From positions 166,928 to 230,927 of the forward strand of contig LCQK01000001.1 of assembly GCA_001004105.1 (NCBI GenBank): a DNA stretch of 64,000 nt, given 5' to 3'. Below the pieces are notes generated by a model. It was not told where the DNA came from. It worked only from the letters and a program-made list of their open reading frames with translations, and searched no databases. Source of the DNA: Candidatus Jorgensenbacteria bacterium GW2011_GWB1_50_10. GTDB taxonomy: Bacteria; Patescibacteriota; Minisyncoccia; UBA6257; GWB1-50-10. Below, in pieces: positions 44,909 through 63,985 of the stretch. A program made the translations under genes and the position numbers. Position 1 is the first letter of the stretch; each line of letters starts with the position of its first letter.

Positions 44909-45292
44909 ATGAGAGTAGTTGGAGTAAATATTCCCGACAATAAAAAAGTAGAAATAGCTTTGAGCTATCTTTACGGCGTTGGCCGTTCGCTTGCGGAGAA
45001 AATTTTGGCGGAAGCGGGCATTTCGACCGGAAAGAGAGCGAAAGACCTGACCGCCGAAGAGGTGAATAAAATCCAATCCATTCTTGAAAAAAAGTACAAG
45101 GTGGAAGGAGAACTTCGCCAGATTGTGAAGCAGAATATTTCCCGCCTGAAGGAAATTCAGGCCTACCGCGGCTTGCGCCACGTAAAGAAACTGCCGGTGC
45201 GGGGCCAGCGGACAAAGAGCAATTCAAGAACGGTCCGCGGCAACGTCCGGAAAACGGCCGGTAGCGGCAAGAGAAAAGTTGAACTGAAATAA
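44909..45292 (+). CDS. rpsM: 30S ribosomal protein S13
   Basis: MRVVGVNIPDNKKVEIALSYLYGVG. Confidence 0.9.
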   Translation: MRVVGVNIPDNKKVEIALSYLYGVGRSLAEKILAEAGISTGKRAKDLTAEEVNKIQSILEKKYKVEGELRQIVKQNISRLKEIQAYRGLRHVKKLPVRGQRTKSNSRTVRGNVRKTAGSGKRKVELK

Positions 45293-45294
45293 TT

Positions 45295-45732
45295 ATGGGA
45301 AAAAAGAAAGTAATCCAAAAATCGGAAACGGAAGCCGTGAAGGAGCCAGTTGTGACTAAAAAAAAGACCGAGGGCGCCCAGACAAGGTACGAGAAGGGTT
45401 TTATTTACATCCAGGCCTCCTACAACAACACGCTCCTTACGGTCACCGACGACAAAGGCAATGTTTTGACTTGGCTCTCCGCCGGCAGTTTGGGTTTCTC
45501 GGGACCGAAAAAAGCCACTCCTTTCGCCGCTTCCAAGGTAGCGGAGGCGATTGTGGAAAAAATTCAGAAATCGGGTCCGTCCACGGTTGAGGTTTTCGTG
45601 AAAGGCGTCGGTTCCGGCCGGGACGCCGTGCTCCGCTCACTCGCGGCCCAGGGATTGAACATTGTCTCCATTAAGGATATCACTCCGATTCCCCACAACG
45701 GTCCGCGGCCGAGAAAAGTCAGGCGAGTTTAG
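45295..45732 (+). CDS. rpsK: 30S ribosomal protein S11
   Basis: IYIQASYNNTLLTVTDDKGNVLTW. Confidence 0.9.
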   Translation: MGKKKVIQKSETEAVKEPVVTKKKTEGAQTRYEKGFIYIQASYNNTLLTVTDDKGNVLTWLSAGSLGFSGPKKATPFAASKVAEAIVEKIQKSGPSTVEVFVKGVGSGRDAVLRSLAAQGLNIVSIKDITPIPHNGPRPRKVRRV

Positions 45733-45748
45733 GTAATTCAAATTAGCT

Positions 45749-46348
45749 ATGAGAAAAATAACCGAAAAAAAGGAGAGGTATTTAGGCGTCAAGCTTTTTT
45801 TGAAGCCGGAGCGCTGTTCGAGTCCCAAGTGCGTGATGATCCGCCGGCCTTACCGGCCAGGCGTCCACGGCGCAAAAAGAAGGGGGCCGGTTTCCGATTA
45901 CGGCCGGCAGCTCCGGGAAAAGCAGAAAATTCAGATTGTCTACGGCCTCACGAACCGCCAGATGTGCAACCTTTTCAAGGAGCCATTAGGGAAAATTCTT
46001 TTGATTTTAGAGCAGCGGCTGGACAGAGTAGTGTATCTTTTGGGTTTGGCGCCCTCGCCCCGGGTCGCCCGGCAGTTTATTTCCCACGGCCATATTCAGG
46101 TGAATCAAAGGAAGGTGACAATTCCTTCCTTCCATGTTAAAGTGGGTGACATTGTGGGTATTCGGCCCGAGTCGCGGAAAGCCAAAATTTTTGAAGGCCT
46201 ACCAGAGAAATTGAAGCAGTACCAACCGCCGGCCTGGCTTGAACTCAATAAAGAAGAACTGAAGGGCAAATGTGTCGCGAACCCGCGGGCCGAAGAAATA
46301 AACCTTGGCGCTGACGCCAATTTAGTCGGTCAGTTTTATTCAAGGTGA
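45749..46348 (+). CDS. rpsD: 30S ribosomal protein S4
   Basis: S4 N-terminal zinc-ribbon-like region and S4 RNA-binding domain. Confidence 0.9.
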   Translation: MRKITEKKERYLGVKLFLKPERCSSPKCVMIRRPYRPGVHGAKRRGPVSDYGRQLREKQKIQIVYGLTNRQMCNLFKEPLGKILLILEQRLDRVVYLLGLAPSPRVARQFISHGHIQVNQRKVTIPSFHVKVGDIVGIRPESRKAKIFEGLPEKLKQYQPPAWLELNKEELKGKCVANPRAEEINLGADANLVGQFYSR

Positions 46349-46363
46349 AATAATTTTACTTAT

Positions 46364-47149
46364 ATGAAGTATTCACATCTGAGCGAAACAGTATCGATTA
46401 AAAAAGTTTCCGAAGACGGAAAAAAAGGGGTTTTTCACGTTGAGGGCCTCTATACAGGTTACGGTCAGACGGTCGGCAACGCCTTGCGCCGTGCCCTTCT
46501 TTCGTCGCTTCCCGGCGCGGCCATAACCCAGATTAAAATCAAAGGTGTGGACCATGAATTTTCAACGCTGCCCGGCATGGTGGAAGACGCCGTTGAACTC
46601 ACGCTGAATTTAAAAAAAGTCCGGTTTCATTTCTTCGCCGACGAGCCGCAGACTTTGAAACTCCACGTCAAAGGCGAGCGCGAAGTGAAGGCGGGTGACA
46701 TTGAGTCGACGACGCTCGTCAGAGTGGTAAATCCCGAGCTTCGCATCGCCACTTTAACCAAGAAAAACGCCGATTTGGACATGGAGCTTACGGTTGAAAA
46801 AGGTTTGGGCTACGTGCCTTCGGAGTCGCGCCGCCTAGAACGGCTCTCCGTGGGAACCATCGTGCTTGATGCCATTTTTTCGCCGGTCACGCGGGTTGAA
46901 TTTTCGGTGGAGGATATGCGGGTCGGCGAACGCACCGATTATAACCGCTTGGAACTTGAAATCGAAACTGACGGGTCCTTAAGTCCCTCGGAAGCGCTCC
47001 ATAAAGCGGCCAATGTTCTGAAGGATCATTTTGAAAAAGTTTCAGACATTCCGGTTGTTAAAGTTGAAACGGAGGCCATGCCTACCGGCAGGCAGGCGCC
47101 GAAAGAAGGTAGCAAGAAAAAACCGAGAGCGAAGAAGGCGAAATTATGA
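46364..47149 (+). CDS. rpoA: DNA-directed RNA polymerase alpha subunit, short form (N-terminal domain plus Lys-rich tail, apparently no alpha-CTD), tail carries a palindromic-element insertion
   Basis: 261 aa; alpha NTD motifs; C-terminal ...EAMPTGRQAPKEGSKKKPRAKKAKL. Confidence 0.85.
   Translation: MKYSHLSETVSIKKVSEDGKKGVFHVEGLYTGYGQTVGNALRRALLSSLPGAAITQIKIKGVDHEFSTLPGMVEDAVELTLNLKKVRFHFFADEPQTLKLHVKGEREVKAGDIESTTLVRVVNPELRIATLTKKNADLDMELTVEKGLGYVPSESRRLERLSVGTIVLDAIFSPVTRVEFSVEDMRVGERTDYNRLELEIETDGSLSPSEALHKAANVLKDHFEKVSDIPVVKVETEAMPTGRQAPKEGSKKKPRAKKAKL
47090..47107. repeat. Variant palindrome GCCTACCGGCAGGCAGGC in-frame in the rpoA tail (encodes PTGRQA)
   Basis: Direct read; same reading frame as the msrB and efp copies. 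Confidence 0.85.
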
Positions 47150-47496
47150 GGCACTTAGCGAAGGGCAGAAAATTCGGCCTCACAAAAGGTAAGAGAAAAG
47201 CGTTTTTGAAAACGCTTGCGGGGAATTTCATTAAAAAAGAGAGAATTGTGACGACCGAGGCGAGAGCCAAGGAAATCCGGCCGCTCGTCGAGCGGTTTGT
47301 AAGCTACGGCAAGCGCAGAAATTTGCAGGGACTTCGGCTTCTTCTTCAAAAACTTCCCAAAGAAGCCGCTTATAAGGTTTATTACGAAATTGCCCCCCGT
47401 TATGAAGGTCGCCGCGGCGGCTACGTTAGAATCGTGAAGCGCGCGGCCGCGAGGCGCGGCGACGGCGCAAAAATGGCCACCATTGAATTCGTTTAA
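47146..47496 (+). CDS. rplQ: 50S ribosomal protein L17
   Basis: MRHLAKGRKFGLTKGKRKA. Confidence 0.9.
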   Translation: MRHLAKGRKFGLTKGKRKAFLKTLAGNFIKKERIVTTEARAKEIRPLVERFVSYGKRRNLQGLRLLLQKLPKEAAYKVYYEIAPRYEGRRGGYVRIVKRAAARRGDGAKMATIEFV

Positions 47497-47498
47497 CT

Positions 47499-47846
47499 AT
47501 GGCCGAATACGTTATTGACGCAAAAAACAAAAAACTCGGACGACTGGCGAGCGAAATCGCGGTTATTCTCCAAGGCAAAAAAAATCCGACCTACGAACCT
47601 AAAGAAGCCGGCAGCGACCGCGTCGTCGTAAAAAACGTGGCCGGTTTGACTTTAAGCGGCCGCAAAACGAAACAAAAAGTTTATTATAAGCACACCGGTC
47701 CTTTGGGTCACCTCAAAATCAGGAAATACGAGGAAGTTTTCGCGAAAAACCCGGCCTGGGTGCTCCGCCACGCTGTTTCCCTGATGTTGCCCAAAAACCG
47801 TCTCCAAAAAGCAAGGATGAAAAGATTGGTCATTCTAGTAAAATAA
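47499..47846 (+). CDS. rplM: 50S ribosomal protein L13
   Basis: 115 aa L13 pattern. Confidence 0.9.
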   Translation: MAEYVIDAKNKKLGRLASEIAVILQGKKNPTYEPKEAGSDRVVVKNVAGLTLSGRKTKQKVYYKHTGPLGHLKIRKYEEVFAKNPAWVLRHAVSLMLPKNRLQKARMKRLVILVK

Positions 47847-47849
47847 TTT

Positions 47850-48296
47850 ATGGAAAAACAAAAAACAAGAGCCAAAGTGAAGAAAATAGAAGAGAAACCC
47901 GTCCCCAAGGAACGTTATTTTGAGGGCTTAGGCAGGCGAAAAACGGCGGTCGCGCGGGTGCGGATCGTAAAAGGCAACCGCGACGAAGTTATTATAAACG
48001 GCCGGGAACTTATGAAATATTTCCCGCTTCAAAAGCAGGCAAACACGGCCGTTTCAGCTTTCAAGCAGCTTTCCCTTAAGGGCTATAAAACGAGTGTCAG
48101 GGTTTCAGGCGGCGGCGCGAGCGCCCAAGCCGAAGCGGTTCGGTTGGGTGTTGCCCGTGCTTTGGTTCTAATGGACGCCGAACTTCGTTCGCGCCTTAAA
48201 GCGCTCGGATTCTTAAGGCGCGACCCGCGAATGGTGGAGCGGAAGAAATACGGGCTACGCAAAGCGCGAAGACCGCAGCAGTGGCGAAAGCGCTAA
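47850..48296 (+). CDS. rpsI: 30S ribosomal protein S9
   Basis: C-terminal GLRKARRPQQWRKR. Confidence 0.9.
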   Translation: MEKQKTRAKVKKIEEKPVPKERYFEGLGRRKTAVARVRIVKGNRDEVIINGRELMKYFPLQKQANTAVSAFKQLSLKGYKTSVRVSGGGASAQAEAVRLGVARALVLMDAELRSRLKALGFLRRDPRMVERKKYGLRKARRPQQWRKR

Positions 48297-49651: not shown

Positions 49652-50947
49652 ATGAAATTCGTAGTTAGGGGCGGTAAACCATTGAAGGGAGAAGTTAAGC
49701 TCGCCGGCGCCAAGAACGCCGCGACAAAGTTGCTCGTTGCGTCCATTTTAAGCGAAGAGCCTTCAGTTTTGGAAAATTTTCCGATTATCGGCGATACGGC
49801 AATTACCGCGGGCCTCTGCGAAGAATTGGGAAGCGAAATTTTAAAAGACGGCAATACTGTTTCCATCAAAACGCCGGTCATTAAAAACACCAGGGTCGGC
49901 TTGCTCACCCGCCGCAACCGGATTCCCGTTTTGGCCTTAGGACCGCTTCTTGCGAGAGCCGGCCGAGCCGAAGTGCCGGTCGTAGGCGGCGATAAAATCG
50001 GCGCCCGGCCGGTTGATATTCATCTGGAGGCGTTAAAAAAGCTTGGAGCCGAAGTTACGATTTCCGGTGCTTCTTACGAAGCCAAGGCGCCGGAGGGCTT
50101 ACGGGGAGCAGAGATAACCTTCCGTTTTCCTTCGGTCGGGGCGACCGAAAACACACTCCTTGCCTCGGTTTTAGCCAAGGGCAAAACCGTCATGAGAAAT
50201 GCGGCTCTTGAGCCCGAGATAATGGACTTAATCAAATTTTTGCAGAAAATGGGGGCGATTATCGAGCTTGGGGCGAACCGCACAATTTATGTGGAGGGCG
50301 TCTCGCGCCTGCGGGGAGCAAAACACAGTATTTTGCCGGATCGGAACGAAGCGGTTTCTTTTGCCTGTCTTGCGGTCGTGACGGGGGGCGATATCTTCGT
50401 AAAAGACGCCGTTCAGGAACATTTGATAACTTTTTTGAACACCTTACGGAGAATCGGCGGCGACTACGAGGTGGTTAATGGAGGTGTGAGATTTTGGAGA
50501 GCCGGCAAACTTACGCCCACTAGCATTGAAACCGACACCCATCCGGGTTTCATGACCGATTGGCAGCAGCCGCTTGCCATACTTCTCACGCAGGCCGAGG
50601 GCGTTTCAAAAATCCACGAGACCGTTTACGAAGACCGTTTCAGCTACACCAAGGACTTGAATTTAATGGGAGCGGATATTATTGTGACTACGGAGTGTCT
50701 CGGTAGTTTGCCTTGCCGTTTCTCCGGAAAATTTCCCCATAGTGCGACGATAAGTGGACCGACGCCCTTGAAAGGAATGAAGTTGGAAGTGCCGGATTTG
50801 CGGGCGGGGATGGCGCACCTGACCGCCGCTTTAATCGCCGAGGGGGAGTCCGAAATTTCGGGCGTGGAGGAAATCGACCGCGGTTACGAAAGGATAGATG
50901 AGAGATTGAGATATTTGGGCGCCGACATTAAAAGAATTGACGATTAA
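49652..50947 (+). CDS. murA: UDP-N-acetylglucosamine 1-carboxyvinyltransferase
   Basis: 431 aa, EPSP-synthase fold motifs. Confidence 0.9.
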   Translation: MKFVVRGGKPLKGEVKLAGAKNAATKLLVASILSEEPSVLENFPIIGDTAITAGLCEELGSEILKDGNTVSIKTPVIKNTRVGLLTRRNRIPVLALGPLLARAGRAEVPVVGGDKIGARPVDIHLEALKKLGAEVTISGASYEAKAPEGLRGAEITFRFPSVGATENTLLASVLAKGKTVMRNAALEPEIMDLIKFLQKMGAIIELGANRTIYVEGVSRLRGAKHSILPDRNEAVSFACLAVVTGGDIFVKDAVQEHLITFLNTLRRIGGDYEVVNGGVRFWRAGKLTPTSIETDTHPGFMTDWQQPLAILLTQAEGVSKIHETVYEDRFSYTKDLNLMGADIIVTTECLGSLPCRFSGKFPHSATISGPTPLKGMKLEVPDLRAGMAHLTAALIAEGESEISGVEEIDRGYERIDERLRYLGADIKRIDD

Positions 50948-50954
50948 CTCAAAA

Positions 50955-51962
50955 ATGTTTGTAAGAAAAATAGGCATTGATTTGGGAACGACGAATACTT
51001 TGGTTTTTTTACCTGACAAAGGCATCGTCATCAACGAACCAACCGTCGTTGCTCTCCGCCGGCCCGATAACGGCGTTTTGGCGGTTGGCGCCGAGGCCAA
51101 AGAAATGGTGGGGCGCACACCCGACAATATCGTCACCTACAAACCTTTAAAAGACGGCGTCATTGCCGAGTATTACATCACTCAAGCGATGCTCAAATAT
51201 TTCATTGCCAAAAGCATCGGTCCTTTCAACGTTTTCCGGCCAGAGGTGGTCATTTCTGTGCCGGCCGGCATTACTTCCACCGAGTATCGGGCGGTCATGA
51301 ATGCGGCCCGGGAGGCCGGCGCTCGCGAAGTTTATCTCGTTAAGGAGCCGCTTTTGGCTTCCTTGGGTGCCGGTATCCCCATTCATTCTTCGGAAGGGAA
51401 TATGATTGTGAATATCGGCGGCGGCACGACGGAGGTCGCCATCATTTCCTTGGGTGGCATTGTTGCCTGGGCGAGCCGGCGGGTGGCCGGCAACCGTTTT
51501 GACCAGGCCGTTTCCGAGTATATCAAGAAAAAATACGGCCTCGCGATTGGCGAGAGCACGGCCGAGAACATCAAAATCGCGGTGGGCAGCGCCTTGCCGA
51601 ACCGGACGAAGCTTGAGGCGAAAATCCGCGGCCGCGACTTGCTCTCCGGCTTGCCGCGGGATTTGGTGGTGAATTCCAATGAGGTGGCGGAAGCGATTAA
51701 TCCGTACTTAATAGAGATAATGGATGCGGTCCAGTCGGTTTTCAACGTCACGCCGCCGGAACTCGCGGCTGATATCATGGAAAAAGGCATTATTCTTTCG
51801 GGCGGCAGCGCCCAACTTCGGAATTTGGACGAATTTTTCAAGCGGTCTTTGGGGGTGGCGGCCTACATTGCGGAGGACCCGTTTTTCTGCGTTGCCCGCG
51901 GCACGGCGACGATCTTGAATCACCTCGACGTTTATAAGCGGACGCTTTTGACCAAACGATGA
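50955..51962 (+). CDS. mreB: Rod shape-determining protein MreB
   Basis: IGIDLGTTNTLV, actin-fold phosphate motifs; ATG 50955. Confidence 0.85.
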   Translation: MFVRKIGIDLGTTNTLVFLPDKGIVINEPTVVALRRPDNGVLAVGAEAKEMVGRTPDNIVTYKPLKDGVIAEYYITQAMLKYFIAKSIGPFNVFRPEVVISVPAGITSTEYRAVMNAAREAGAREVYLVKEPLLASLGAGIPIHSSEGNMIVNIGGGTTEVAIISLGGIVAWASRRVAGNRFDQAVSEYIKKKYGLAIGESTAENIKIAVGSALPNRTKLEAKIRGRDLLSGLPRDLVVNSNEVAEAINPYLIEIMDAVQSVFNVTPPELAADIMEKGIILSGGSAQLRNLDEFFKRSLGVAAYIAEDPFFCVARGTATILNHLDVYKRTLLTKR

Positions 51963-54323: not shown

Positions 54324-56168
54324 ATGGCTAATTCCTCGGGAAACAGTAAAGACGTAGTTTACTTCGGCCGGACCGATTTTCGGGGCGAGAACCGGCTCTT
54401 CGGCGTGAAGCGCGCCGATCGGCGCCAGCACATGTATGTTATCGGCAAGACCGGCACCGGCAAGAGCGCGCTCCTGCACAATATGATCGTCCAAGATATT
54501 GCAAACGGCGAAGGCGTTTGCGTCGTTGACCCCCACGGCGAACTCGTTGAGGATATTCTCTCCAAAATTCCCGAGGAGCGGCTAGAGGATGTGATTTATC
54601 TTAATCCGGCCGACACCGAACATTACGTCGGCTTCAACGTGCTGGAGTTGCCGGACCCGAAATACAAACATCTGGTCGCCTCCGGCTTAATGGGAATTTT
54701 CACCAAAATCTGGGCGAATGTCTGGTCGGCGCGGATGGAGTACATCTTGAACAACGCCGTCCTCGCCCTACTGGACACGCCCAATTCCACGCTTTTGGGT
54801 ATTACCCGAATACTCGTTGATAAGGAGTACCGGCAGAAAATTATCGCCAATCTCAAGGACCCGGTGGTGAAGGCCTTTTGGGTTCACGAATACGAAGAAT
54901 GGCAGGATAAATTCCGTAACGAAGCCATCGCTCCCATTCAGAATAAAGTCGGCCAGTTCCTTTCAACCGCCCTCATTAGGAACATTGTGGGGCAGGCCAA
55001 AAGCACGATAGACATTTTTAAAATAATGAACGAGGGAAAAATTTTTATCGTAAATCTTTCTAAAGGCAGAATCGGCGAAGATAATTCTGCTCTCCTTGGA
55101 GCCATGATTATCACCAAAATCCAGCTCTCGGCCATGGAGCGCGTCCGCCTTCCCGAGGAGGAACGGGTGGATTTTTATCTCTATGTCGATGAGTTTCAGA
55201 ATTTCGCGACCGATTCCTTCGCGGGCATTTTGTCGGAGGCCCGCAAATACCGCCTCAATCTGATTTTGGCCCATCAGTACGTGGGCCAGCTCGTGACCGA
55301 AACTTCCACCCGGGTGCGGGATGCCGTTTTCGGCAACGTCGGGACAATGATTATTTTCCGGGTGGGGGCGGCTGATGCTGAATATCTGGAGCCGGAATTT
55401 ACGCCGGAATTCACGATTCAGGATATCGTCAATCTCCCGAACTACCACGTTTATTTGAAACTGATGGTAAACGGCGTGACAAGCCGCCCTTTTTCTTCCC
55501 GGACCCTGCCGCCGTTTAAGGTCCAAGCCTCGCCACTTATCAAGGAAAAAGTGATTGCTTCTTCCGTGAAGCGTTATGGCCGGCCGAGAGTGGTGGTGGA
55601 AGAAGAAATCAACCGCTGGAGCGGGATTATGGCCGGGGAAGGAGGCGCTCCCCCAAGCGGCAAGTATGAAGCGACTTGTTCCATTTGCGGCAAACCGGCG
55701 ATTGTGCCTTTCAAACCCGAGCCGGGCCGGCCGGTTTACTGCAGCGACTGTTTTGCCAAAATTGAGGCCGGCGAACTAAAGCCGCTCCCCGCCAAACTTT
55801 TTACCGGCAAACCTGAAAAGAGATATACAAGCGATTTATCGGCCTTAGGCATTGAATTTGAAGGGTCGCCAAAAAAAGAAACGATGGTGGGTGGGCTCGC
55901 CCGCAACGCTTCGCGTAGCGATGCGGGCGGGGGATTTCTAGAGAGAAGGAACCGGCCCGAAAGAAGAAGATATGAGCGCCCGAGGCAGGGTCCGCCACGG
56001 CCGCAATCCATTATCCGGGAAAGTTCGGTGCCGGAGGAGACCGAGAAGCCACTGGGGCTTAGTGAACTCACGCCTCAAGAGGAAAAAATCAAACCCGAAC
56101 GGAGTAAACCCGAGCCGGACGTGGCCGGTCTCCAAGAAGCGCTCCGAAAGGCGCTGGAGAATAAGTAG
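54324..56168 (+). CDS. VirD4/TraD-type (T4SS coupling protein-like) AAA ATPase with C-terminal zinc ribbon and RG-rich tail
   Basis: Walker A GKTGTGKS, VVDPHGE, Walker B YLYVDEFQNF; C-terminal CSICGK...VYCSDCF; no other T4SS genes in the window. Confidence 0.5.
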   Translation: MANSSGNSKDVVYFGRTDFRGENRLFGVKRADRRQHMYVIGKTGTGKSALLHNMIVQDIANGEGVCVVDPHGELVEDILSKIPEERLEDVIYLNPADTEHYVGFNVLELPDPKYKHLVASGLMGIFTKIWANVWSARMEYILNNAVLALLDTPNSTLLGITRILVDKEYRQKIIANLKDPVVKAFWVHEYEEWQDKFRNEAIAPIQNKVGQFLSTALIRNIVGQAKSTIDIFKIMNEGKIFIVNLSKGRIGEDNSALLGAMIITKIQLSAMERVRLPEEERVDFYLYVDEFQNFATDSFAGILSEARKYRLNLILAHQYVGQLVTETSTRVRDAVFGNVGTMIIFRVGAADAEYLEPEFTPEFTIQDIVNLPNYHVYLKLMVNGVTSRPFSSRTLPPFKVQASPLIKEKVIASSVKRYGRPRVVVEEEINRWSGIMAGEGGAPPSGKYEATCSICGKPAIVPFKPEPGRPVYCSDCFAKIEAGELKPLPAKLFTGKPEKRYTSDLSALGIEFEGSPKKETMVGGLARNASRSDAGGGFLERRNRPERRRYERPRQGPPRPQSIIRESSVPEETEKPLGLSELTPQEEKIKPERSKPEPDVAGLQEALRKALENK

Positions 56169-56381: not shown

Positions 56382-56410
56382 TTGACAAAATCAGATTTAT
56401 CTGATATAAT
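56382..56410 (+). promoter_or_regulatory. Consensus sigma70 promoter TTGACA-17-TATAAT driving the 56507 orphan gene through a hairpin-containing 5'UTR
   Basis: -35 56382..56387, -10 56405..56410; 5'UTR hairpin GGTATAAGA/TCTTATACC; SD CAGGAGG. Confidence 0.55.
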
Positions 56411-56506: not shown

Positions 56507-57016
56507 ATGTCGTTACTGAAAACGATGTCCCCGAGGGAGCAAGAGAGGATTCAACACGAACGGCTCGTGAACCGGGATTTCCCCTGGTTGTGGGCCGTGA
56601 GAAGCGAGTGGGATTTTCCAGCGCAGGAGATGACAGTTCAGTACGCTGGTAAATACAATCCACTTCTCAAGGCGTTTCTTGCCTACAATGACTCCATACT
56701 CAAAGAGATTTGGGTTCGAGTTGAGGTCAAACATCCTCGGGGCAAGGACTACACCGGTTACTCTTTCTCCGCGGTGAGGAAAGTAGACGAACCCCGGGAT
56801 CGCTCTTGGGCGGAGGCGATTTTGTGCAGAGTTCCTTACGGGGGCGTAACTCACCTCGCGATTCTGAGTTACCGTCATCATCAAGACGGCACGGAGGATA
56901 GGAGTAGGCGTCAGGTAACGGTCTATCGGCCGATGAAGCCGGAGATGACCCTCGACGCCTTCCTTCTCGAGGCTGTCGAAGAGGCGGAAAAGAACAAGCC
57001 GCGGGCGTGGAAATAA
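56507..57016 (+). CDS. Hypothetical GC-rich orphan protein (169 aa)
   Basis: Strong promoter, SD and terminator; shares VTVYRPMK with the 10538 protein and NPLLKAFL with the minus-strand ORFs at 4645-5199. Confidence 0.55.
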   Translation: MSLLKTMSPREQERIQHERLVNRDFPWLWAVRSEWDFPAQEMTVQYAGKYNPLLKAFLAYNDSILKEIWVRVEVKHPRGKDYTGYSFSAVRKVDEPRDRSWAEAILCRVPYGGVTHLAILSYRHHQDGTEDRSRRQVTVYRPMKPEMTLDAFLLEAVEEAEKNKPRAWK

Positions 57017-57651: not shown

Positions 57652-57720
57652 AACGAGAACTATTGTGCCCTAATTCCCAAAAATAATCAACGCCTGGGAA
57701 CCTGTATAATTAGATTAAAT

Positions 57721-59493
57721 ATGACTGAAACAAAGGTCTGCCAAAGTTGCAAACAAAGTTTTGTAATAGAGGCCGAGGATTTTGATTTCTACATGAAAAT
57801 CCAAGTTCCGCCGCCGACGTGGTGTTCGGATTGCAGAATCATGCGGCGGCTTGCTTGGCGAAACGAGCGAACGCTGTATAAAGCGAAGTGCGCGAATTGC
57901 AAGAAAGATATTTTTTCCGCTTACTCACCGGACAAACCATTTCCGGTTTTCTGCCACGATTGCTGGTTTTCCGATGCCTGGGACCCTATAGCCTACGGCC
58001 GTGATTATGATTTTTCCAGGCCCTTTTTTGAGCAGTGGGGCGAGCTTTTTCAGGAAGTGCCGCGGCTCAATCTCTGGCAATTGAACTGCGTAAATTCCCC
58101 GTACTCAAACATTATCCGCGATGCCAAGAATTGTTACCTTGCTTTTTCCATGGTTGGCGGTGAGGAGGTTTTTTATTCAAAAATCATTGACCGTTCGAAG
58201 CAGATTTTTGACAGTTTGCTCGTCGTAGACAGCGAGCTCTGTACAGGGGTGATTTACGGTGCGAAGAATTATAACGTCCACAATTCTCTCTCCGTTAACT
58301 CATGCTTGGATTCGTCTTTCTTATTTGACTGCCGGAACGTCAGAAACTGCTTCATGAGTTCCAACTTCCGCAATAAAGAATATGTTTTCAAGAATAAACA
58401 GCTTACAAAAGAGCAGTATATTGGAGAATTAAAGAAGATTAATTTCGGCAGTTTTTCGGTTTCCCAGGGCTTAAAAAAGGAATTTGATGAAATGTTGCTT
58501 CGGTCTATTCATGAATATGCTGATAATAACAAGGTAGAAAACTCCACCGGTGATAAGTTAATGAACGTGAGAAACGTAAAAGATTCTTTTGAAAGTTATG
58601 AGATGGAGAACTGCCGCTTTATGGGGCGGTGCCTTCAAATTAATGATTCAATGGATTGCGTATATACAGGAGTTGGTTCAGAGTTGATTTTTGAATATAC
58701 TAGCGGTGGCTCGGCGATGCGAAACATTAAATTTGCGATTGCCTGTTTTGGCGGCGAGAGCGACTGTATTTATGTTGGTTGGTGCAAGAACTCGTCAAAT
58801 CTTTTCGGTTGTTTTGGGGTTCGTGACAAACGTTATTGTATTTTAAACAAGCAATACACAGAAGCAGGGTATGATGAATTGGTATCGAAAATTATAAAAC
58901 ACATGGACGCGATGCCATATGCGGGAAAGAACGGCCGCATTTATAAATATGGAGAATTCTTTCCGATTGAACTTTCGCCGTTTTCATATAACGGCAGTGT
59001 GGCGCAAGAACACTACCCGTTTGCGAGGGAGGAGATCCTGGCGCGCGGGTACAATTATCGCAAGCCGGACGTGAAGGATCCGGCGATTGACGTCAAAAAT
59101 GAGGAGATTCCGGATGATATTACCTCGGTTAAAGACGATTTTGTGGGTAAATCAGTCGCCTGTGCTCACGCCGGAGAATGTATCCATCAGTGCACCGTTG
59201 CTTTTAAGATTGTTCCTCAAGAACTTACGATGTATCGGAGAATTAAACTTCCTCTGCCGCGTTTATGTCCCAACTGTCGCCACTACGAACGCTTGAGATA
59301 TAGGAATCCTTGGAAACTCTGGCACCGCAAATGCACTTGTGCCGGCCAAAAATCAGAAAATGGCGTCTATCAAAACACCACTTCTCATTTCCACGGTGCA
59401 GGCCATTGCCCCAACGAATTTGAAACAAGTTATTCTCCGGACAGAAAGGAGGTCGTCTACTGCGAGCAGTGCTATAACACTGAGGTAGTGTAA
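57721..59493 (+). CDS. Hypothetical Cys-rich protein with homologous double zinc-ribbon modules at both termini and a central beta-helix-like repeat region
   Basis: N-terminal CQSC..CSDCR..CANC..CHDC; C-terminal CPNCR..CTC..CEQC; internal repeat of the module (Y.K..P.P..C..CR..R...RN...L...C....YSPD...V.C..C). Confidence 0.55.
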   Translation: MTETKVCQSCKQSFVIEAEDFDFYMKIQVPPPTWCSDCRIMRRLAWRNERTLYKAKCANCKKDIFSAYSPDKPFPVFCHDCWFSDAWDPIAYGRDYDFSRPFFEQWGELFQEVPRLNLWQLNCVNSPYSNIIRDAKNCYLAFSMVGGEEVFYSKIIDRSKQIFDSLLVVDSELCTGVIYGAKNYNVHNSLSVNSCLDSSFLFDCRNVRNCFMSSNFRNKEYVFKNKQLTKEQYIGELKKINFGSFSVSQGLKKEFDEMLLRSIHEYADNNKVENSTGDKLMNVRNVKDSFESYEMENCRFMGRCLQINDSMDCVYTGVGSELIFEYTSGGSAMRNIKFAIACFGGESDCIYVGWCKNSSNLFGCFGVRDKRYCILNKQYTEAGYDELVSKIIKHMDAMPYAGKNGRIYKYGEFFPIELSPFSYNGSVAQEHYPFAREEILARGYNYRKPDVKDPAIDVKNEEIPDDITSVKDDFVGKSVACAHAGECIHQCTVAFKIVPQELTMYRRIKLPLPRLCPNCRHYERLRYRNPWKLWHRKCTCAGQKSENGVYQNTTSHFHGAGHCPNEFETSYSPDRKEVVYCEQCYNTEVV

Positions 59494-59494
59494 A

Positions 59495-60931
59495 ATGTCT
59501 TCTTACGACATTTTCTTTTTTGTTGCGTTGTTTTTCTTAGCTGGAGTGTTTTTGTCGAGTATCGGAGGAGAGTTTTGGATATTAGTTTTGGTTGTCGCGG
59601 CGGGAGCCGCGTTTTTGTTTTGGGGCGTTTGGCGCAAAAACAGAAGATTTTTTTGGCTTGCCGGTCTGGTTTTTATCACTATCGTGGGCGCGCTTTATTA
59701 CACCGGGGATGATTTGAAATTCCAGGGAAGCGTCAATATTCATTTTGACGAGAAAATAACTTTTACCGGCGTCATTATTTCCAACCCAACCTTGAAAAGT
59801 GGCAGTCAAGAATTTAAATTGAAATTAAATCCGCCCTTTAGCGGCAATGTTTTAGTAAAAACCGCCCGCTATCCCGAGTTCAGTTATGGCGATGAAGTGC
59901 GGATTGAGGGAAAAATAGAGAGACCGTTTTCCGGAAGTTATGCTCAATATTTGAGTAAAGAAAAGATAAGCGGCGTCGTAACTTTTGCCGAGGCCGAAGA
60001 AATCTCAAGCGGCAAGGGAAGCAAAATAAAAGCGCTCCTTTTCGGCGTCAAAAATGCCGTGATTGGCTCGTTTCAGAATATTTTACCGGTGAAGGAGGCA
60101 GCCTTTGCTTCCGGCCTTACTTTGGGCGAGCGGGGAGAGTTTTCCGAAGAGTTTCGGGAAGCAATGTCAAAGAGCGGCACGACGCATTTGGTAGCGCTCT
60201 CCGGCTACAACATCACGATTATCGTCGGCGCCGTGACGGGGCTCTTTGTTTGGTTTCTCTCGCGCCGGGTTTCATTTATTCTCACTATCATTGTGGTTTT
60301 GGGTTTCGTGCTCATGACCGGCGCCGAGGCCTCGGTGGTACGGGCGGCGATTATGGGAATTTTAGTGATGCTCTCACGCGAAGTGGGGCGCTTGTTTGAT
60401 TTCCGGAACGCGATAATCTTGGCCGGACTCCTCATGGTTCTTCAAAATCCCAAAGTGCTCGCTTTTGACGCCGGTTTTCAATTGTCGTTTCTCGCGCTTC
60501 TCGGAATAATCTATCTTCGGCCGGCAGTCGTGAAATTTTTCCGGGTCAGTGACGACGAAGGGTTTTTGTCTTGGAAAGGCAACCTTTTGACCACCGCCTC
60601 AGCGCAATTTATGGTTGCGCCGCTTTTGATCTCCAGTTTCGGCAGTTTTTCGCTCACCTCGCTTGCCGCAAACGTCTTAATTTTGGAACTTGTCCCGCTC
60701 ACGATGTTTTTGGGTTTTCTTACCGCCTTTTTGGGTTTTTTCGCCAGTTACTTTGCTATGATCTCAGGGCTTATCGTTTCCGTGCTTCTCAAATTTGAGA
60801 TGTTTGTCATAGAACTCTTCGCTAAATTGAGTATTCCTTTCGGTTCGGGTGCCGGAAGTTTATTTTTCGTTTTCTATTACATGGTTCTTGTCGGTTTCAT
60901 AATTTATGTGGGAAAAATTAGCCGAGCATAA
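59495..60931 (+). CDS. comEC: ComEC/Rec2 competence protein, membrane channel part (DUF4131 plus competence domain)
   Basis: TTHLVALSGYNITII motif, 10+ TM. Confidence 0.8.
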   Translation: MSSYDIFFFVALFFLAGVFLSSIGGEFWILVLVVAAGAAFLFWGVWRKNRRFFWLAGLVFITIVGALYYTGDDLKFQGSVNIHFDEKITFTGVIISNPTLKSGSQEFKLKLNPPFSGNVLVKTARYPEFSYGDEVRIEGKIERPFSGSYAQYLSKEKISGVVTFAEAEEISSGKGSKIKALLFGVKNAVIGSFQNILPVKEAAFASGLTLGERGEFSEEFREAMSKSGTTHLVALSGYNITIIVGAVTGLFVWFLSRRVSFILTIIVVLGFVLMTGAEASVVRAAIMGILVMLSREVGRLFDFRNAIILAGLLMVLQNPKVLAFDAGFQLSFLALLGIIYLRPAVVKFFRVSDDEGFLSWKGNLLTTASAQFMVAPLLISSFGSFSLTSLAANVLILELVPLTMFLGFLTAFLGFFASYFAMISGLIVSVLLKFEMFVIELFAKLSIPFGSGAGSLFFVFYYMVLVGFIIYVGKISRA

Positions 60932-61775
60932 AAACAAAATTATCGTTTTGCTCGCGGCCCTCGCGATTCTTGATTTTTTGGTTTTTTGGCAAATCGGCAG
61001 GGCGGGAACGGAGGATGAAAATTTAAGGATTTATTTCTTGAGCGTCGGCCAGGGCGACAGTGAGCTTGTCGAACTACCGGGCGGCGTGAAGGTTTTGATT
61101 GACGGCGGCCCGCCGAACGGCTTGGTCTCCGGAGAATTAAGTAAATTTCTGCCGATGGGTGACCGTTACGTTGATTTAGTGGTGATGAGCCATCCGCAAT
61201 TGGACCACTTCGGCGGCTTGATTGAAATTTTGAGAAATTACGAAATCGGCGCCTTCCTTACAAGCGGCCGTGAGGGGGAAGCCGCGGCTTTTGCCGAGCT
61301 TGAGCAAGTAATTGAAGAGAAGAACATAAAAGTTATTACGCTCTCTGCCGGCGACAGAATCCGCTATCTTGATTCTCGTTTTGAAATTTTGAGCCCCGAA
61401 CCGGCCGATTTGAAAAGCAGAGAATTGAACGATGCCACGCTTGTGATGGAGCTTACGAACGGGGCGGCGAAGGCGCTTTTTACGGGTGACATCGGAGCAG
61501 ACATTGAGGAGAAGATTTTCTGGAAATTGGAGAATATCGATATTCTCAAAGTCCCTCACCACGGCTCCAAATTTTCTTCATCGGAAAAATTTCTCGCGGC
61601 GATAAAACCGGCGGTCGCGGTGGTGGAAGTCGGCAAGAACAGTTACGGCCATCCGACGAAAGAAGCGCTCGATCGGGTAAGTTCCGTGGGCGCCCGCATT
61701 TTCCGGACGGATTTGGACGGCACTTTAAGGTTTGAACTAAGCGATAAGGAGATTAGAATTTTTCAGCAGAGATAA
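60906..61775 (+). CDS. ComEC C-terminal metallo-beta-lactamase domain encoded as a separate, +1-overlapping ORF
   Basis: MBL motif VMSHPQLDHFGG, D..H; overlaps the upstream ORF by 26 nt in the +1 frame. Confidence 0.75.
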   Translation: MWEKLAEHKNKIIVLLAALAILDFLVFWQIGRAGTEDENLRIYFLSVGQGDSELVELPGGVKVLIDGGPPNGLVSGELSKFLPMGDRYVDLVVMSHPQLDHFGGLIEILRNYEIGAFLTSGREGEAAAFAELEQVIEEKNIKVITLSAGDRIRYLDSRFEILSPEPADLKSRELNDATLVMELTNGAAKALFTGDIGADIEEKIFWKLENIDILKVPHHGSKFSSSEKFLAAIKPAVAVVEVGKNSYGHPTKEALDRVSSVGARIFRTDLDGTLRFELSDKEIRIFQQR

Positions 61776-61968: not shown

Positions 61969-63378
61969 ATGATAAGAATGAAAGGAAGGATTTTAGCAGG
62001 CGAAATCAGCAAATACGAAGGGGAGGAAGTGAAATTGAAGGGCTGGGTGGATTCCCGCCGCGACCACGGCGGCCTTATTTTTATTGATGTCCGCGACCGG
62101 AGCGGCCTGGCGCAGGTTGTTTTCAATCCAAAGAAGGATAAGAAACTTCACGAAATTGCGGAAGAACTGCGGCCGGAATGGGTAGTGGCGATTCGCGGGG
62201 AAGTCGTGAAACGCCCGAAGGGAATGGAGAATCCGAAGATTTTAGGCGGCGAATTTGAGGTCGTGGCTCTGAAACTTGAGGTTTTGGCCCAGGCCTTGCC
62301 GGTGCCGCTTGACGTTACCGGCGACGGGGCCGATGTCGGCGAGGAAATCAGGATGAAATACCGCTATCTGGATTTGCGCCGGCCGCGGATGCAGAAAAAT
62401 ATCCGGATGCGCGATAAAGTCATCAAGTTTTTCCGCGACTACTTGACCGCCCGCGATTTTGTGGAAATTGAGACGCCGCATTTGAGCAAGTCCACGCCGG
62501 AAGGAGCCCGCGACTACGTTGTCCCTTCCCGGCTCCACGCCGGCAAGTTCTATGCTCTACCCCAATCTCCCCAGCAGTATAAGCAGCTCCTCATGGTGGC
62601 CGGCTTTGAAAAATATTTTCAGATTGCCCGGGTCTTCCGCGACGAAGACACACGTGGCGACCGCCAGCCCGAGCACACCCAGCTCGATATTGAAATGTCT
62701 TTCACCAGCCCCGAAGAAGTGATGAGTTTAGTTGAGGAAATGGTGACGGAGATGATCGGCGTTCTTTACTCGGAGAAGAGGATTGAGACACCATGGCCGC
62801 GGCTAGATTATGCGGATGCAATGAAGAAATACAGCACCGACAAGCCGGATTTGCGCAAAGACAAGAACGATCCGAATGAAGTCGCCTTTTGCTGGATCGT
62901 GGATTTTCCGCAGTTTGAGTTGGACAAAGCCACGAAACAAATTCAGCCGGTGCATCATATGTTTGTAGAACCGGCGGAGGGCGGTGCCGATTTACTGGAT
63001 TCCGAACCGCTTAAAATGACGAGCACGCAGTATGACTGGGTTTGCAACGGCTATGAACTAGCAAGCGGCAGTTTGCGAATTACCGATCCAACGCTTCAGA
63101 TGAAAGTATTCAAACTTTTGGGCATGAGCGAAGAAAAGGCACGGGCTGATTTCGGTCACTTGCTTGAAGCGTTCAGTTTCGGCGTGCCGCCCCACGGCGG
63201 CATCGCGCCGGGTATTGACCGACTGGTAATGATTTTGCAGAATGAACCGAACATCCGGGAAGTGATTGCTTTCCCCAAAACCGGCGACGGGCGGGATTTG
63301 ATGATGGACTCACCGAGTGAAGTTTCTAAAAAACAACTGAAAGAACTTCATCTCAAAATTGATAAAAAGGAAAAATAA
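61969..63378 (+). CDS. aspS: Aspartate--tRNA ligase (archaeal/short type, possibly non-discriminating)
   Basis: OB-fold N-terminus, class II motifs FRDEDTRGDRQPEHTQLDIE, GGIAPGIDR. Confidence 0.85.
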   Translation: MIRMKGRILAGEISKYEGEEVKLKGWVDSRRDHGGLIFIDVRDRSGLAQVVFNPKKDKKLHEIAEELRPEWVVAIRGEVVKRPKGMENPKILGGEFEVVALKLEVLAQALPVPLDVTGDGADVGEEIRMKYRYLDLRRPRMQKNIRMRDKVIKFFRDYLTARDFVEIETPHLSKSTPEGARDYVVPSRLHAGKFYALPQSPQQYKQLLMVAGFEKYFQIARVFRDEDTRGDRQPEHTQLDIEMSFTSPEEVMSLVEEMVTEMIGVLYSEKRIETPWPRLDYADAMKKYSTDKPDLRKDKNDPNEVAFCWIVDFPQFELDKATKQIQPVHHMFVEPAEGGADLLDSEPLKMTSTQYDWVCNGYELASGSLRITDPTLQMKVFKLLGMSEEKARADFGHLLEAFSFGVPPHGGIAPGIDRLVMILQNEPNIREVIAFPKTGDGRDLMMDSPSEVSKKQLKELHLKIDKKEK

Positions 63379-63379
63379 T

Positions 63380-63985
63380 ATGAAACACCCCAAGACCGAA
63401 AGAACATTGGTAATTATTAAACCCGACGGCGTCCAGCGGGGGCTTATCGGCGAGATTATCAGGCGCTACGAGCAGAGCGGTTTGAAGCTTGTCGGTTTAA
63501 AAATGGTTGTGCCGACCAAGGATTTCATTGAAAAGCATTACTTAATCAATCCCGAATGGCGCCGGATAACCGGCGAGAAAACAATTGAATCCTATCGCAA
63601 GAATGGAAAGAAACCGCCTTCGGACGACCCGATTAAAGTGACCGAGGTTATCCTCAATAATCTGAAAAAATACCTGTCCTCGGGCCCCGTCGTCGCAATG
63701 GTCTGGCAGGGGATGCACGCCGTGGGCATTGTCCGGAAAATCACGGGCGGCACTGAGCCCCTAACCTCCGATGTCGGCACCATCCGGGGCGATTTGACGA
63801 TTGATTCCTACGAGGTATCCGACGTTGACGGCCGGGCAGTGCGGAATCTTATCCACGCCTCCGGCACCCCGGAGGAAGCGGAGGCGGAAATCCCCCTCTG
63901 GTTTTCGGAAAAAGAGCTTTTGAATTACCGCCTCATTTCCGAGGCGATATTATACGACGTGAATCTCGACGGGATTTTGGAATAA
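63380..63985 (+). CDS. ndk: Nucleoside diphosphate kinase (with internal insertion)
   Basis: ERTLVIIKPDGVQRGLIGEIIRRYEQSGLKL; active-site His region; 201 aa. Confidence 0.8.
   Translation: MKHPKTERTLVIIKPDGVQRGLIGEIIRRYEQSGLKLVGLKMVVPTKDFIEKHYLINPEWRRITGEKTIESYRKNGKKPPSDDPIKVTEVILNNLKKYLSSGPVVAMVWQGMHAVGIVRKITGGTEPLTSDVGTIRGDLTIDSYEVSDVDGRAVRNLIHASGTPEEAEAEIPLWFSEKELLNYRLISEAILYDVNLDGILE

Follow-up and report, generated by a model that had tools for sequence, protein, structure and literature searches.

The DNA analyzed here, hereafter the window, is a 64,000-nucleotide stretch of contig LCQK01000001.1 from Candidatus Jorgensenbacteria bacterium GW2011_GWB1_50_10. Gene F, an open reading frame (ORF) at 57721..59493 on the + strand (the strand of all F features given below), starts with an ATG at 57721, has a stop codon ending at 59493 and encodes a protein of 590 amino acids (aa; 68.5 kDa, pI 7.1) with 32 Cys. 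The product consists, in order, of a treble-clef finger pair, a helix, beta-solenoid unit A with a trailing helix, unit B with a trailing helix, an acidic alpha/beta domain and a second treble-clef finger pair, with at least four Cys4 sites predicted. A hydropathy scan detected neither a transmembrane segment nor a signal peptide (maximum 19-residue hydropathy 1.23); the protein is thus predicted to be soluble and cytoplasmic, and a secreted or disulfide-rich protein was rejected on the same grounds. F is the sole member of its family in the window, and across genomes the family is linked to orphan VirD4/TraD-like ATPases that are soluble, one of which, designated X, is encoded 1.55 kb upstream of F.

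The first-pass annotation, made from the DNA letters without database searches, had described a double zinc module that recurs at the two ends of the protein, and the comparisons bear this out. Residues 10–82 and 491–585 align with 26% identity (BLASTP, E 9e-14), and profiles built from 50 homologues relate the N-terminal module (aa 1–95) to the C-terminal one (aa 475–590) with a hhalign probability of 99.1% (E 5e-19). Judged by these alignments the repeat is real and far above chance, the sole large difference being 22 residues, Cys and His among them, inserted in the C-terminal copy. N-terminal finger 1 (aa 4–45, 57730..57855) is zf_Tbcl-like, with predicted ligands C7, C10, C35 and C38, each kept in at least 97% of 148 family members, and an Arg-rich helix (R39/R42/R43/R47) after the ligands. 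N-terminal finger 2 (aa 50–82, 57868..57966) is zf_Tbcl_2-like, or CxxC-x17-CxxC-like, with predicted ligands in the exact spacing C57-x2-C60-x17-C78-x2-C81; its Cys residues are lost in some paralogues. C-terminal finger 1 (aa 481–530, 59161..59310) is again zf_Tbcl-like, with candidate ligands C481/C487, C491, C516 and C519, and is strongly basic (net charge +7 in F, family mean +4.6). C-terminal finger 2 (aa 534–585, 59320..59475) is zf_Tbcl_2-like with invariant C538, C563, C581 and C584, and its insertion (C540, H556 and H558) might form a fifth metal site. The Cys residues of the predicted metal sites are conserved in 80–100% of the 148 members, except C60, C78, C81 and C487, which fall below the 80% cut-off. 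One divergent paralogue subgroup (L025 6151-7806, L044 2792-4450, L033 6238-7902 and similar genes) has lost Cys ligands in both modules, with N-terminal finger 2 reading ...KSDLSGE... and C-terminal finger 1 ...PLPRYHFDVRIKN...; the flanking motifs are retained and the solenoid gains extra Cys.

Two AlphaFold2 models of the protein were obtained. The first, based on 50 close homologues, had a predicted local distance difference test (pLDDT) score of 80.7, with about 60 in the solenoid repeats, and gave uninformative Foldseek results; the second, based on 148 more diverse members, reached a pLDDT of 94.0 and a predicted TM-score (pTM) of 0.92. In the model, the N-terminal module is composed of a hairpin at 3–16, helices at 18–27 and 36–44, a hairpin at 53–66 and a helix at 79–82, and the secondary structure of the C-terminal module repeats this pattern. 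The modules had been called zinc ribbons; a pair of zinc fingers is what is found, but a treble-clef finger fits better than a ribbon fold, since the second CxxC of each N-terminal finger is placed where a helix begins (C35/C38, helix 36–44; C78/C81, helix 79–82), an arrangement unlike the two hairpins of a classical zinc ribbon. Pfam describes both zf_Tbcl and zf_Tbcl_2, domain families of unknown function, as 'probable treble clef'.

Matches of F to these two families lie below the curated cut-offs. zf_Tbcl (PF13451) covers residues 4–43 with 18.8 bits for the full-length protein, rising to 22.3 bits for the N-terminal module by itself (cut-off 24), and zf_Tbcl_2 (PF23477, equivalent to TIGR04272) covers residues 50–82 with 23 bits in the N-terminal module alone (cut-off 27). 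The NCBIfam model TIGR04272 scores 17.9 bits against F (E 0.0019, cut-off 36), and C-terminal finger 2 matches PF23477 with an E of 0.042. Among 85 paralogues, 29 match PF13451 at E≤0.05 (best 1.4e-7), and the precomputed annotation has homologues P0013, P0023 and P0113 passing PF23477. A standalone protein containing zf_Tbcl and zf_Tbcl_2, which itself scores 88 bits on PF13451, is related by hhalign to the N-terminal module (98.3%) and the C-terminal module (93%). On these scores the F modules are a divergent zf_Tbcl plus zf_Tbcl_2 pair, i.e. relatives of the two families but not threshold-passing members. Small CxxC-x17-CxxC proteins of Methanosarcina mazei bind zinc, as measured by inductively coupled plasma mass spectrometry (PMC12704099), the sole experimental result found for either finger family. 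These TIGR04272 proteins belong to the finger family of finger 2 in each F module, but are single-finger, small and archaeal; from this analogy and the conserved Cys4 sets we infer that the F fingers bind zinc.

The suggestion that the terminal module be sought as a standalone domain was fruitful: it does exist as a protein of 92–93 aa. Being zf_Tbcl plus zf_Tbcl_2, the module is not wholly new. In phage and plasmid collections, a tblastn search matched this module alone (E 6e-5 to 9e-4), with standalone proteins encoded on a plasmid of the Oscillospiraceae, in a record of Subdoligranulum and on a 'phage' scaffold from faeces. A clostridial example from Pusillibacter faecalis (WP_187028406.1, 92 aa, annotated as 'zinc-ribbon domain containing protein') has the finger order and Cys spacing of the F modules, and shares with them the motif F-x-[IF]-x3-E-x2-FY ... 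P-x-x-C-x2-CR, followed by CxxC-x17-CxxC. Unlike F, these proteins of the Bacillota consist of the module alone (Pfam 3e-25 and 4e-19), with no solenoid and no second copy. In two records (L085 3989-4267 and L086 3989-4270) the standalone gene lies 39–109 bp downstream of a sigma-70 family gene, a position reminiscent of that of an anti-sigma factor. LIM domains, as in CRP1 and CRP2, likewise have two consecutive treble-clef-type fingers forming one interaction module, and the C-terminal finger of F is weakly LIM-like (W-H/K-x-C ... C ... YC-x2-CY). However, the matches to CRP proteins in the Protein Data Bank (PDB), obtained with a profile of diverse paralogues, are not significant (E 0.05–0.9), Pfam LIM matches only 4 of the 85 paralogues (best E 0.0057), and the ligand pattern, length (about 80 aa in F and about 55 aa in LIM) and taxonomic range differ. 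The likeness to LIM is at most an analogy to protein–protein binding and not family membership.

The central part of the protein had been described as a beta-helix-like repeat, and this also holds: the region is all-beta in the confident model, has a 12-residue period and contains the strings KNCYLAFS and SVNSC. Autocorrelation of the profile over residues 120–225 peaks at lags 12, 24, 36 and 48. Moreover, the middle of F is a tandem duplication of a unit of about 140 residues (104–240 versus 253–391, hhalign 99.7%, E 4.5e-27), which had escaped the first-pass annotation. Unit A with its trailing helix (aa 104–240, 58030..58440) has 12-residue coils and ends with NxRNKxYxFxNxQxxKEQY; in the homologous unit B with its helix (aa 253–391, 58477..58893), G277 and N376 are invariant and C364 and Y379 nearly so. 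Both units end in NLRNKxY..N.QYTKEEY followed by a helix. In the model a linker helix (102–112) precedes unit A, which is all-beta over 119–228, with strands about 12 residues apart, and is followed by helices over 230–261; unit B is all-beta over 263–375 and is followed by a helix at 381–397. We infer the coil geometry of the solenoid from this periodicity and the DSSP string of the model. The acidic alpha/beta domain that follows (aa 399–475, 58915..59145) carries the motif YGEFFPxExSPFxYNxxxAQE, is well conserved, has a family mean net charge of -5.7, and has no Pfam match and no known relatives.

Residues 96–475 gave no match in Pfam, NCBIfam, PADLOC or PHROGs when F, its three segments and 135 relatives were scanned; a DUF6217 match of a single member (E 0.012–0.036) was dismissed as noise. 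Neither the anti-phage defence models of PADLOC nor the phage protein families of PHROGs matched at E≤1, and PDB sequence searches with F and two profiles found nothing significant. In a Foldseek search of the PDB with the confident model, the top match was 3c8v, a 'putative acetyltransferase' (E 2.3e-4, probability 0.69), followed by LpxD, GlmU, LpxA, PglD and gamma-carbonic anhydrase. F might be an enzyme with its active site in the beta-helix, as in acyltransferases of the left-handed beta-helix class or gamma-carbonic anhydrases, the fingers being only structural caps, and its near-invariant acidic residues (E148, D164, D312, E321 and E325) would suit such a role. We regard this as very improbable. 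These beta-helix matches have TM-scores of 0.05–0.13 and root mean square deviations of 17–25 A, and therefore share only generic solenoid character with F; apart from generic beta-helix proteins, Foldseek returned only small zinc-finger matches. No Hexapep or other enzyme-family match was found in the 135 members scanned, and the period is 12 residues, not the 18 of a left-handed beta-helix coil.

Two known solenoid classes were set aside as homes for F. Membership among the hexapeptide left-handed beta-helix proteins or gamma-carbonic anhydrases was rejected on the period and on the lack of Hexapep matches in 50 and 85 members, the Foldseek matches to left-handed beta-helix enzymes having E of 6e-3 to 0.4 and TM-scores below 0.1. 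The 12-residue period of F, with Cys, Ser and Asn at fixed places in the coil, recalls the coils of the Tenebrio antifreeze protein, but Pfam AFP (PF02420) matched none of the 85 paralogues at E≤0.05, with one weak precomputed match in one paralogue. In addition, antifreeze proteins are secreted and disulfide-stapled, and such stapling of the coils is unlikely in F because the protein is predicted to be cytoplasmic. A Foldseek search of BFVD returned nothing below 1e-3. The architecture, which the first-pass annotation did not recognize, therefore stays unrecognized, no match to a well-characterized family having been found in Pfam, NCBIfam, PADLOC, PHROGs, the PDB or BFVD. No published description of the family was found in the literature, and the whole architecture, the paralogue arrays and the coupling to orphan ATPases appear to be undescribed. 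We judge the family to be outside the known kinds, 'new' meaning here uncharacterized and not a demonstrated new mechanism.

The Patescibacteria, or candidate phyla radiation (CPR), make up a large share of bacterial diversity, and their genomes of roughly 1 Mb encode many proteins of unknown function. Within them, the F family is large. A word-indexed search gave more than 6,800 matches, with full-length homologues at 46–82% identity; the top 120 are 46–100% identical to F and, with few exceptions, full length. Among 1.84 billion cluster representatives (clusters at 50% identity), a profile search gave 5,128 matches at E≤1e-3 and 2,191 at E≤1e-30, with nearly all of the top 150 spanning the whole profile in one architecture. 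Database names of the homologues are 'hypothetical protein', 'Zinc-binding domain-containing protein' as well as 'CxxC-x17-CxxC domain-containing protein'. GTDB species representatives contain at least 578 confirmed loci; among the lineages with names are Nomura-, Giovannoni-, Lipton-, Jorgensen-, Harrison-, Staskawicz-, Kaiser- and Niyogibacteria, Sungiibacteriota and Paceibacterota; Liptonbacteria were checked and lie within the Parcubacteria group. The family is a hallmark of Patescibacteria of the Parcubacteria group (Paceibacteria type). A viral or mobile origin was rejected, with no relatives in IMG/VR contigs and only the 80-residue finger module matched in the phage and plasmid collections.

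Neighbourhoods were compared in 84 related loci (1.11 Mb, ±8 kb around F), which contain 200 family genes, 177 of them full length. In 53 of these loci, 2–10 copies of F lie on the same strand within ±8 kb, and the first 27 kb or so of contig JALLOO010000001.1 of Patescibacteria AH-259-L05 (L002 1-7779 and L018 1-17767) hold at least 15 copies in tandem on one strand. Copies within a locus are 29–55% identical (median 40%), and for 174 of the 177 full-length copies the best match is in another genome. This led us to reject a recent lineage-specific expansion or a hypervariable repertoire, and identifies the arrays as anciently diverged paralogues. Mean pairwise identity is highest in the fingers and the alpha/beta domain (0.42–0.58), lower in the solenoids (0.35) and lowest in helix A (0.28). 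Locus L062 has 8 copies in 15 kb. Locus L071 (JAMPXW010000002.1), labelled 'Burkholderiales bacterium', contains four F genes and an ATPase gene in a typical Patescibacteria context, and is probably a mis-binned contig.

The gene most often found with F is that of the ATPase. In the window, X (54324..56168, + strand) encodes a 614-aa P-loop protein of the VirD4/TraD/HerA type, matching Pfam TrwB_AAD_bind (6.7e-15), zf_Tbcl_2 (1.5e-14), DUF87 and TraG-D_C. It is soluble, with no N-terminal transmembrane segment, and has a CxxC-x17-CxxC finger at aa 448–479 and a low-complexity tail, which is long and rich in Pro, Arg and Glu; no protein in the 64 kb besides X and F carries the CxxC-x17-CxxC finger. 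NCBIfam TraD and VirD4 models match X far under their curated cut-offs. X is one of the 'orphan' homologues of type IV coupling proteins (T4CPs) reported for Patescibacteria, in which 5,713 VirD4-like T4CPs were counted in 2,918 genomes, about 2 each, with only 148 near virB4; the authors of that 2025 survey suggested exaptation (PMC12102498). Genes of the X type are the commonest non-family neighbours of F: 25 of the 84 loci have at least one, 34 such genes were counted in all, and almost every one shares the strand of F. In 19 loci an X gene directly adjoins a family member, and in 11 it adjoins the gene most closely related to the window F, with gaps of 0–261 bp; the window X is about 70% identical to a 'long' subtype located 2–42 bp upstream of an F gene in L025, L069, L035, L021, L054, L042 and L047. 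The density of X genes is about 1 per 23 kb of non-F flank, against about 2 per genome of an assumed size of about 1 Mb, so the local enrichment is roughly 20-fold.

On this basis we tentatively propose, as a reading that may well prove wrong, that F is a zinc-dependent adaptor for VirD4-like ATPases. It would be rigid and zinc-stabilized, with the two conserved finger modules serving as handles at the ends of a beta-solenoid spacer. The basic C-terminal handle would bind nucleic acid, or else a handle would bind the ATPase: the former may be the case because the C-terminal module is strongly basic, the latter because long-form X has the same CxxC-x17-CxxC finger. The variable surface of the spacer would give each paralogue its own cargo or partner specificity, and the adaptor would present its cargo to a hexameric VirD4-like motor, DNA or some other nucleic acid being the most plausible cargo. 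A precedent would be the accessory or adaptor proteins of T4CPs, such as the relaxosome proteins recognized by TraD/VirD4: F too is found beside a VirD4/TraD-like ATPase with a TraG-D_C match and is proposed to present cargo. However, it has no sequence or fold relationship to them, and the ATPases beside F are not near virB4 or relaxases (PMC12102498).

Several observations weigh against the adaptor proposal. No X gene lies within ±8 kb in 59 of the 84 loci, and F also occurs in other contexts, among mur/mraZ and purine genes; the link between F and X is frequent but not obligatory. Many of the adjacencies are supplied by two conserved syntenic layouts, and the 84 loci come from related genomes picked for similarity to the query, such that the counts are not phylogenetically independent. 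In the window itself, a 169-aa ORF and efp, the latter on the opposite strand, separate the two genes, and X and F therefore do not form one operon there. A clearly basic charge is confined to C-terminal finger 1, F being neutral to acidic elsewhere, and the weak LIM-like resemblance favours protein over DNA binding.

Alternatively, F would act without the ATPase as a nucleic-acid-binding or regulatory protein (for example a DNA or RNA organizer, or a transcription or translation factor), the X neighbourhood being inherited synteny. In keeping with such a protein would be the Arg-rich helices that follow the second CxxC, the basic charge of the C-terminal finger, the 59 loci lacking X and the housekeeping contexts (ribosomal protein, dnaK operon, mur and pur genes). 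The same can be said of the standalone module, which in two records of the Oscillospiraceae type sits immediately downstream of a sigma-70 family gene, and of a gene for a Sigma70_r4 plus HARE-HTH protein at the head of one conserved layout. Nevertheless we consider this role doubtful, since the roughly 20-fold enrichment of X and the same-strand gaps of 0–40 bp across several layouts are hard to explain by synteny drift alone, and the rare finger is common to long X and F.

The first of the two layouts runs SecD/F, Sigma70_r4 plus HARE-HTH protein, M450, TM173, ATPase and F array, in some cases followed by CutA. It is exemplified by L040 (574-3991) and occurs upstream of F arrays also in L007, L015, L026, L031, L019, L057, L077, L081 and L038. 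The Sigma70_r4 plus HARE-HTH protein has about 343 aa; M450, of about 450 aa, has two N-terminal transmembrane helices and no Pfam match; and TM173, a transmembrane protein of about 173 aa, precedes the ATPase in six of the ten loci. A fusion of M450 with an ATPase fragment in L045 came from cluster linkage only and was not confirmed by direct BLAST. This layout raises another explanation, namely that F proteins are translocated substrates or effectors of a non-canonical export machine formed by the ATPase, M450 and TM173, the arrays being the effector repertoire of an episymbiont. T4CPs are substrate receptors (PMC12102498), and M450, the small transmembrane protein and X lie directly upstream of the F arrays in up to 10 loci. 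Furthermore, multi-copy arrays are typical of effector repertoires, and the conserved C-terminus E-[VI]-x (E588 at 92%) could be a recognition tag. We think this unlikely, and less probable than a regulatory role: the paralogues are ancient, under strong purifying selection and with orthologues in many candidate phyla, unlike fast-evolving effectors; tightly zinc-cross-linked folds are poor translocation substrates; and neither a channel component nor a signal peptide was identified.

In the second layout, the order is S13...S9, GrpE, F, F, a PaaX_M-like gene, DnaK, ATPase, F ... F, ATPase, DnaJ and F. The grpE, dnaK and dnaJ genes are interleaved with F and ATPase genes in L069, L035, L021, L054, L042 and L047, the usual compact dnaK operon thus being broken up by the F family, and the PaaX_M-like gene is on the opposite strand in L069, L035 and L021. 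It is conceivable from this arrangement that F is a proteostasis or redox component, i.e. a Cys- and zinc-rich holdase or co-chaperone working with DnaK, DnaJ and GrpE and comparable to Hsp33 or the DnaJ zinc-finger domain. Of the loci, 15 have DnaK, 8 have GrpE and 8 have DnaJ, many of the 32 Cys lie outside the four finger sites, and CutA is a recurrent neighbour. Several facts make this improbable: only some genomes, related to one another, have the heat-shock layout, conservation is poor for most Cys outside the fingers, and in the window no dnaK, grpE or dnaJ lies beside F, the 341-aa 'DnaK-cluster' match at 50937-51962 having joined that cluster through single linkage and looking to be of the MreB/actin type. 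The S13-S11-S4-RpoA-L17-L13-S9 cluster of the window (44909-48296, + strand) is about 6 kb upstream of X, and since an S13...S9 backbone also precedes GrpE-F-F in L069, L035 and L021, the region is syntenic but rearranged.

Returning to the adaptor proposal, a wider form of it is that the F family and the orphan ATPases, joined in one layout by M450 and TM173, constitute an unrecognized cytoplasmic or membrane-associated machine, in which up to 15 or more anciently diverged adaptors would feed different DNA or protein cargoes to a T4CP-type motor independently of any type IV secretion channel. We put this forward as a speculation more doubtful than the adaptor role itself; if true, it would explain why about two T4CP genes per genome are kept far from virB4. 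In any case the family is of interest in several respects: i) some tiny genomes devote up to about 27 kb, with at least 15 copies, to it; ii) the fold of the protein is predicted with confidence (pLDDT 94), yet two thirds of its length lack any relative in sequence or structure; iii) its predicted multi-zinc beta-solenoid architecture would be new to structural biology; iv) it is the neighbour most often seen beside VirD4-like ATPases and offers a concrete handle on these proteins, which the 2025 survey left unexplained (PMC12102498); and v) even if the ATPase link fails, F provides the first large-protein context for the zf_Tbcl/zf_Tbcl_2 finger pair.

Immediately downstream of F is a split comEC (59495..61775, + strand), beginning one base past the F stop codon, and the two genes are probably co-transcribed. 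It comprises overlapping genes for a DUF4131 plus Competence part (59495-60931) and a metallo-beta-lactamase (MBL) part (60906-61775), the latter matching ComEC_Rec2 model positions 417–663. The order F-ComEC-MBL is also present in L028, and ComEC is near F in L022 and L052. A connection with DNA uptake or processing would suit the location of F directly before comEC, but few genomes show it; with only 4 of 85 contexts, ComEC or competence was rejected as a component of the system and retained as context. The GC content of F is 0.44, or 0.50 at third codon positions (GC3), compared with a GC3 of 0.58–0.68 for its neighbours (window 57721-60931); comEC is also low (GC3 0.53), the two genes forming a GC dip at 58–60 kb.

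A perfect TATAAT preceded by TG was found at 57705-57710, just 10 nt ahead of the F ATG, with no -35 element called, and the F mRNA may be leaderless or nearly so. Another promoter, a perfect sigma-70 consensus (TTGACA-17-TATAAT with upstream TG) at 56382-56410, lies ahead of the 169-aa ORF (56507-57016, + strand), for which neither Pfam nor NCBIfam gave a match and to which none of the neighbouring genes in the 84 loci is related. Near the right end of the window, an NDK gene (63359-63985, + strand) overlaps the end of aspS by 20 nt, and its Pfam NDK match is in two stretches, which suggests that the domain carries an insertion.

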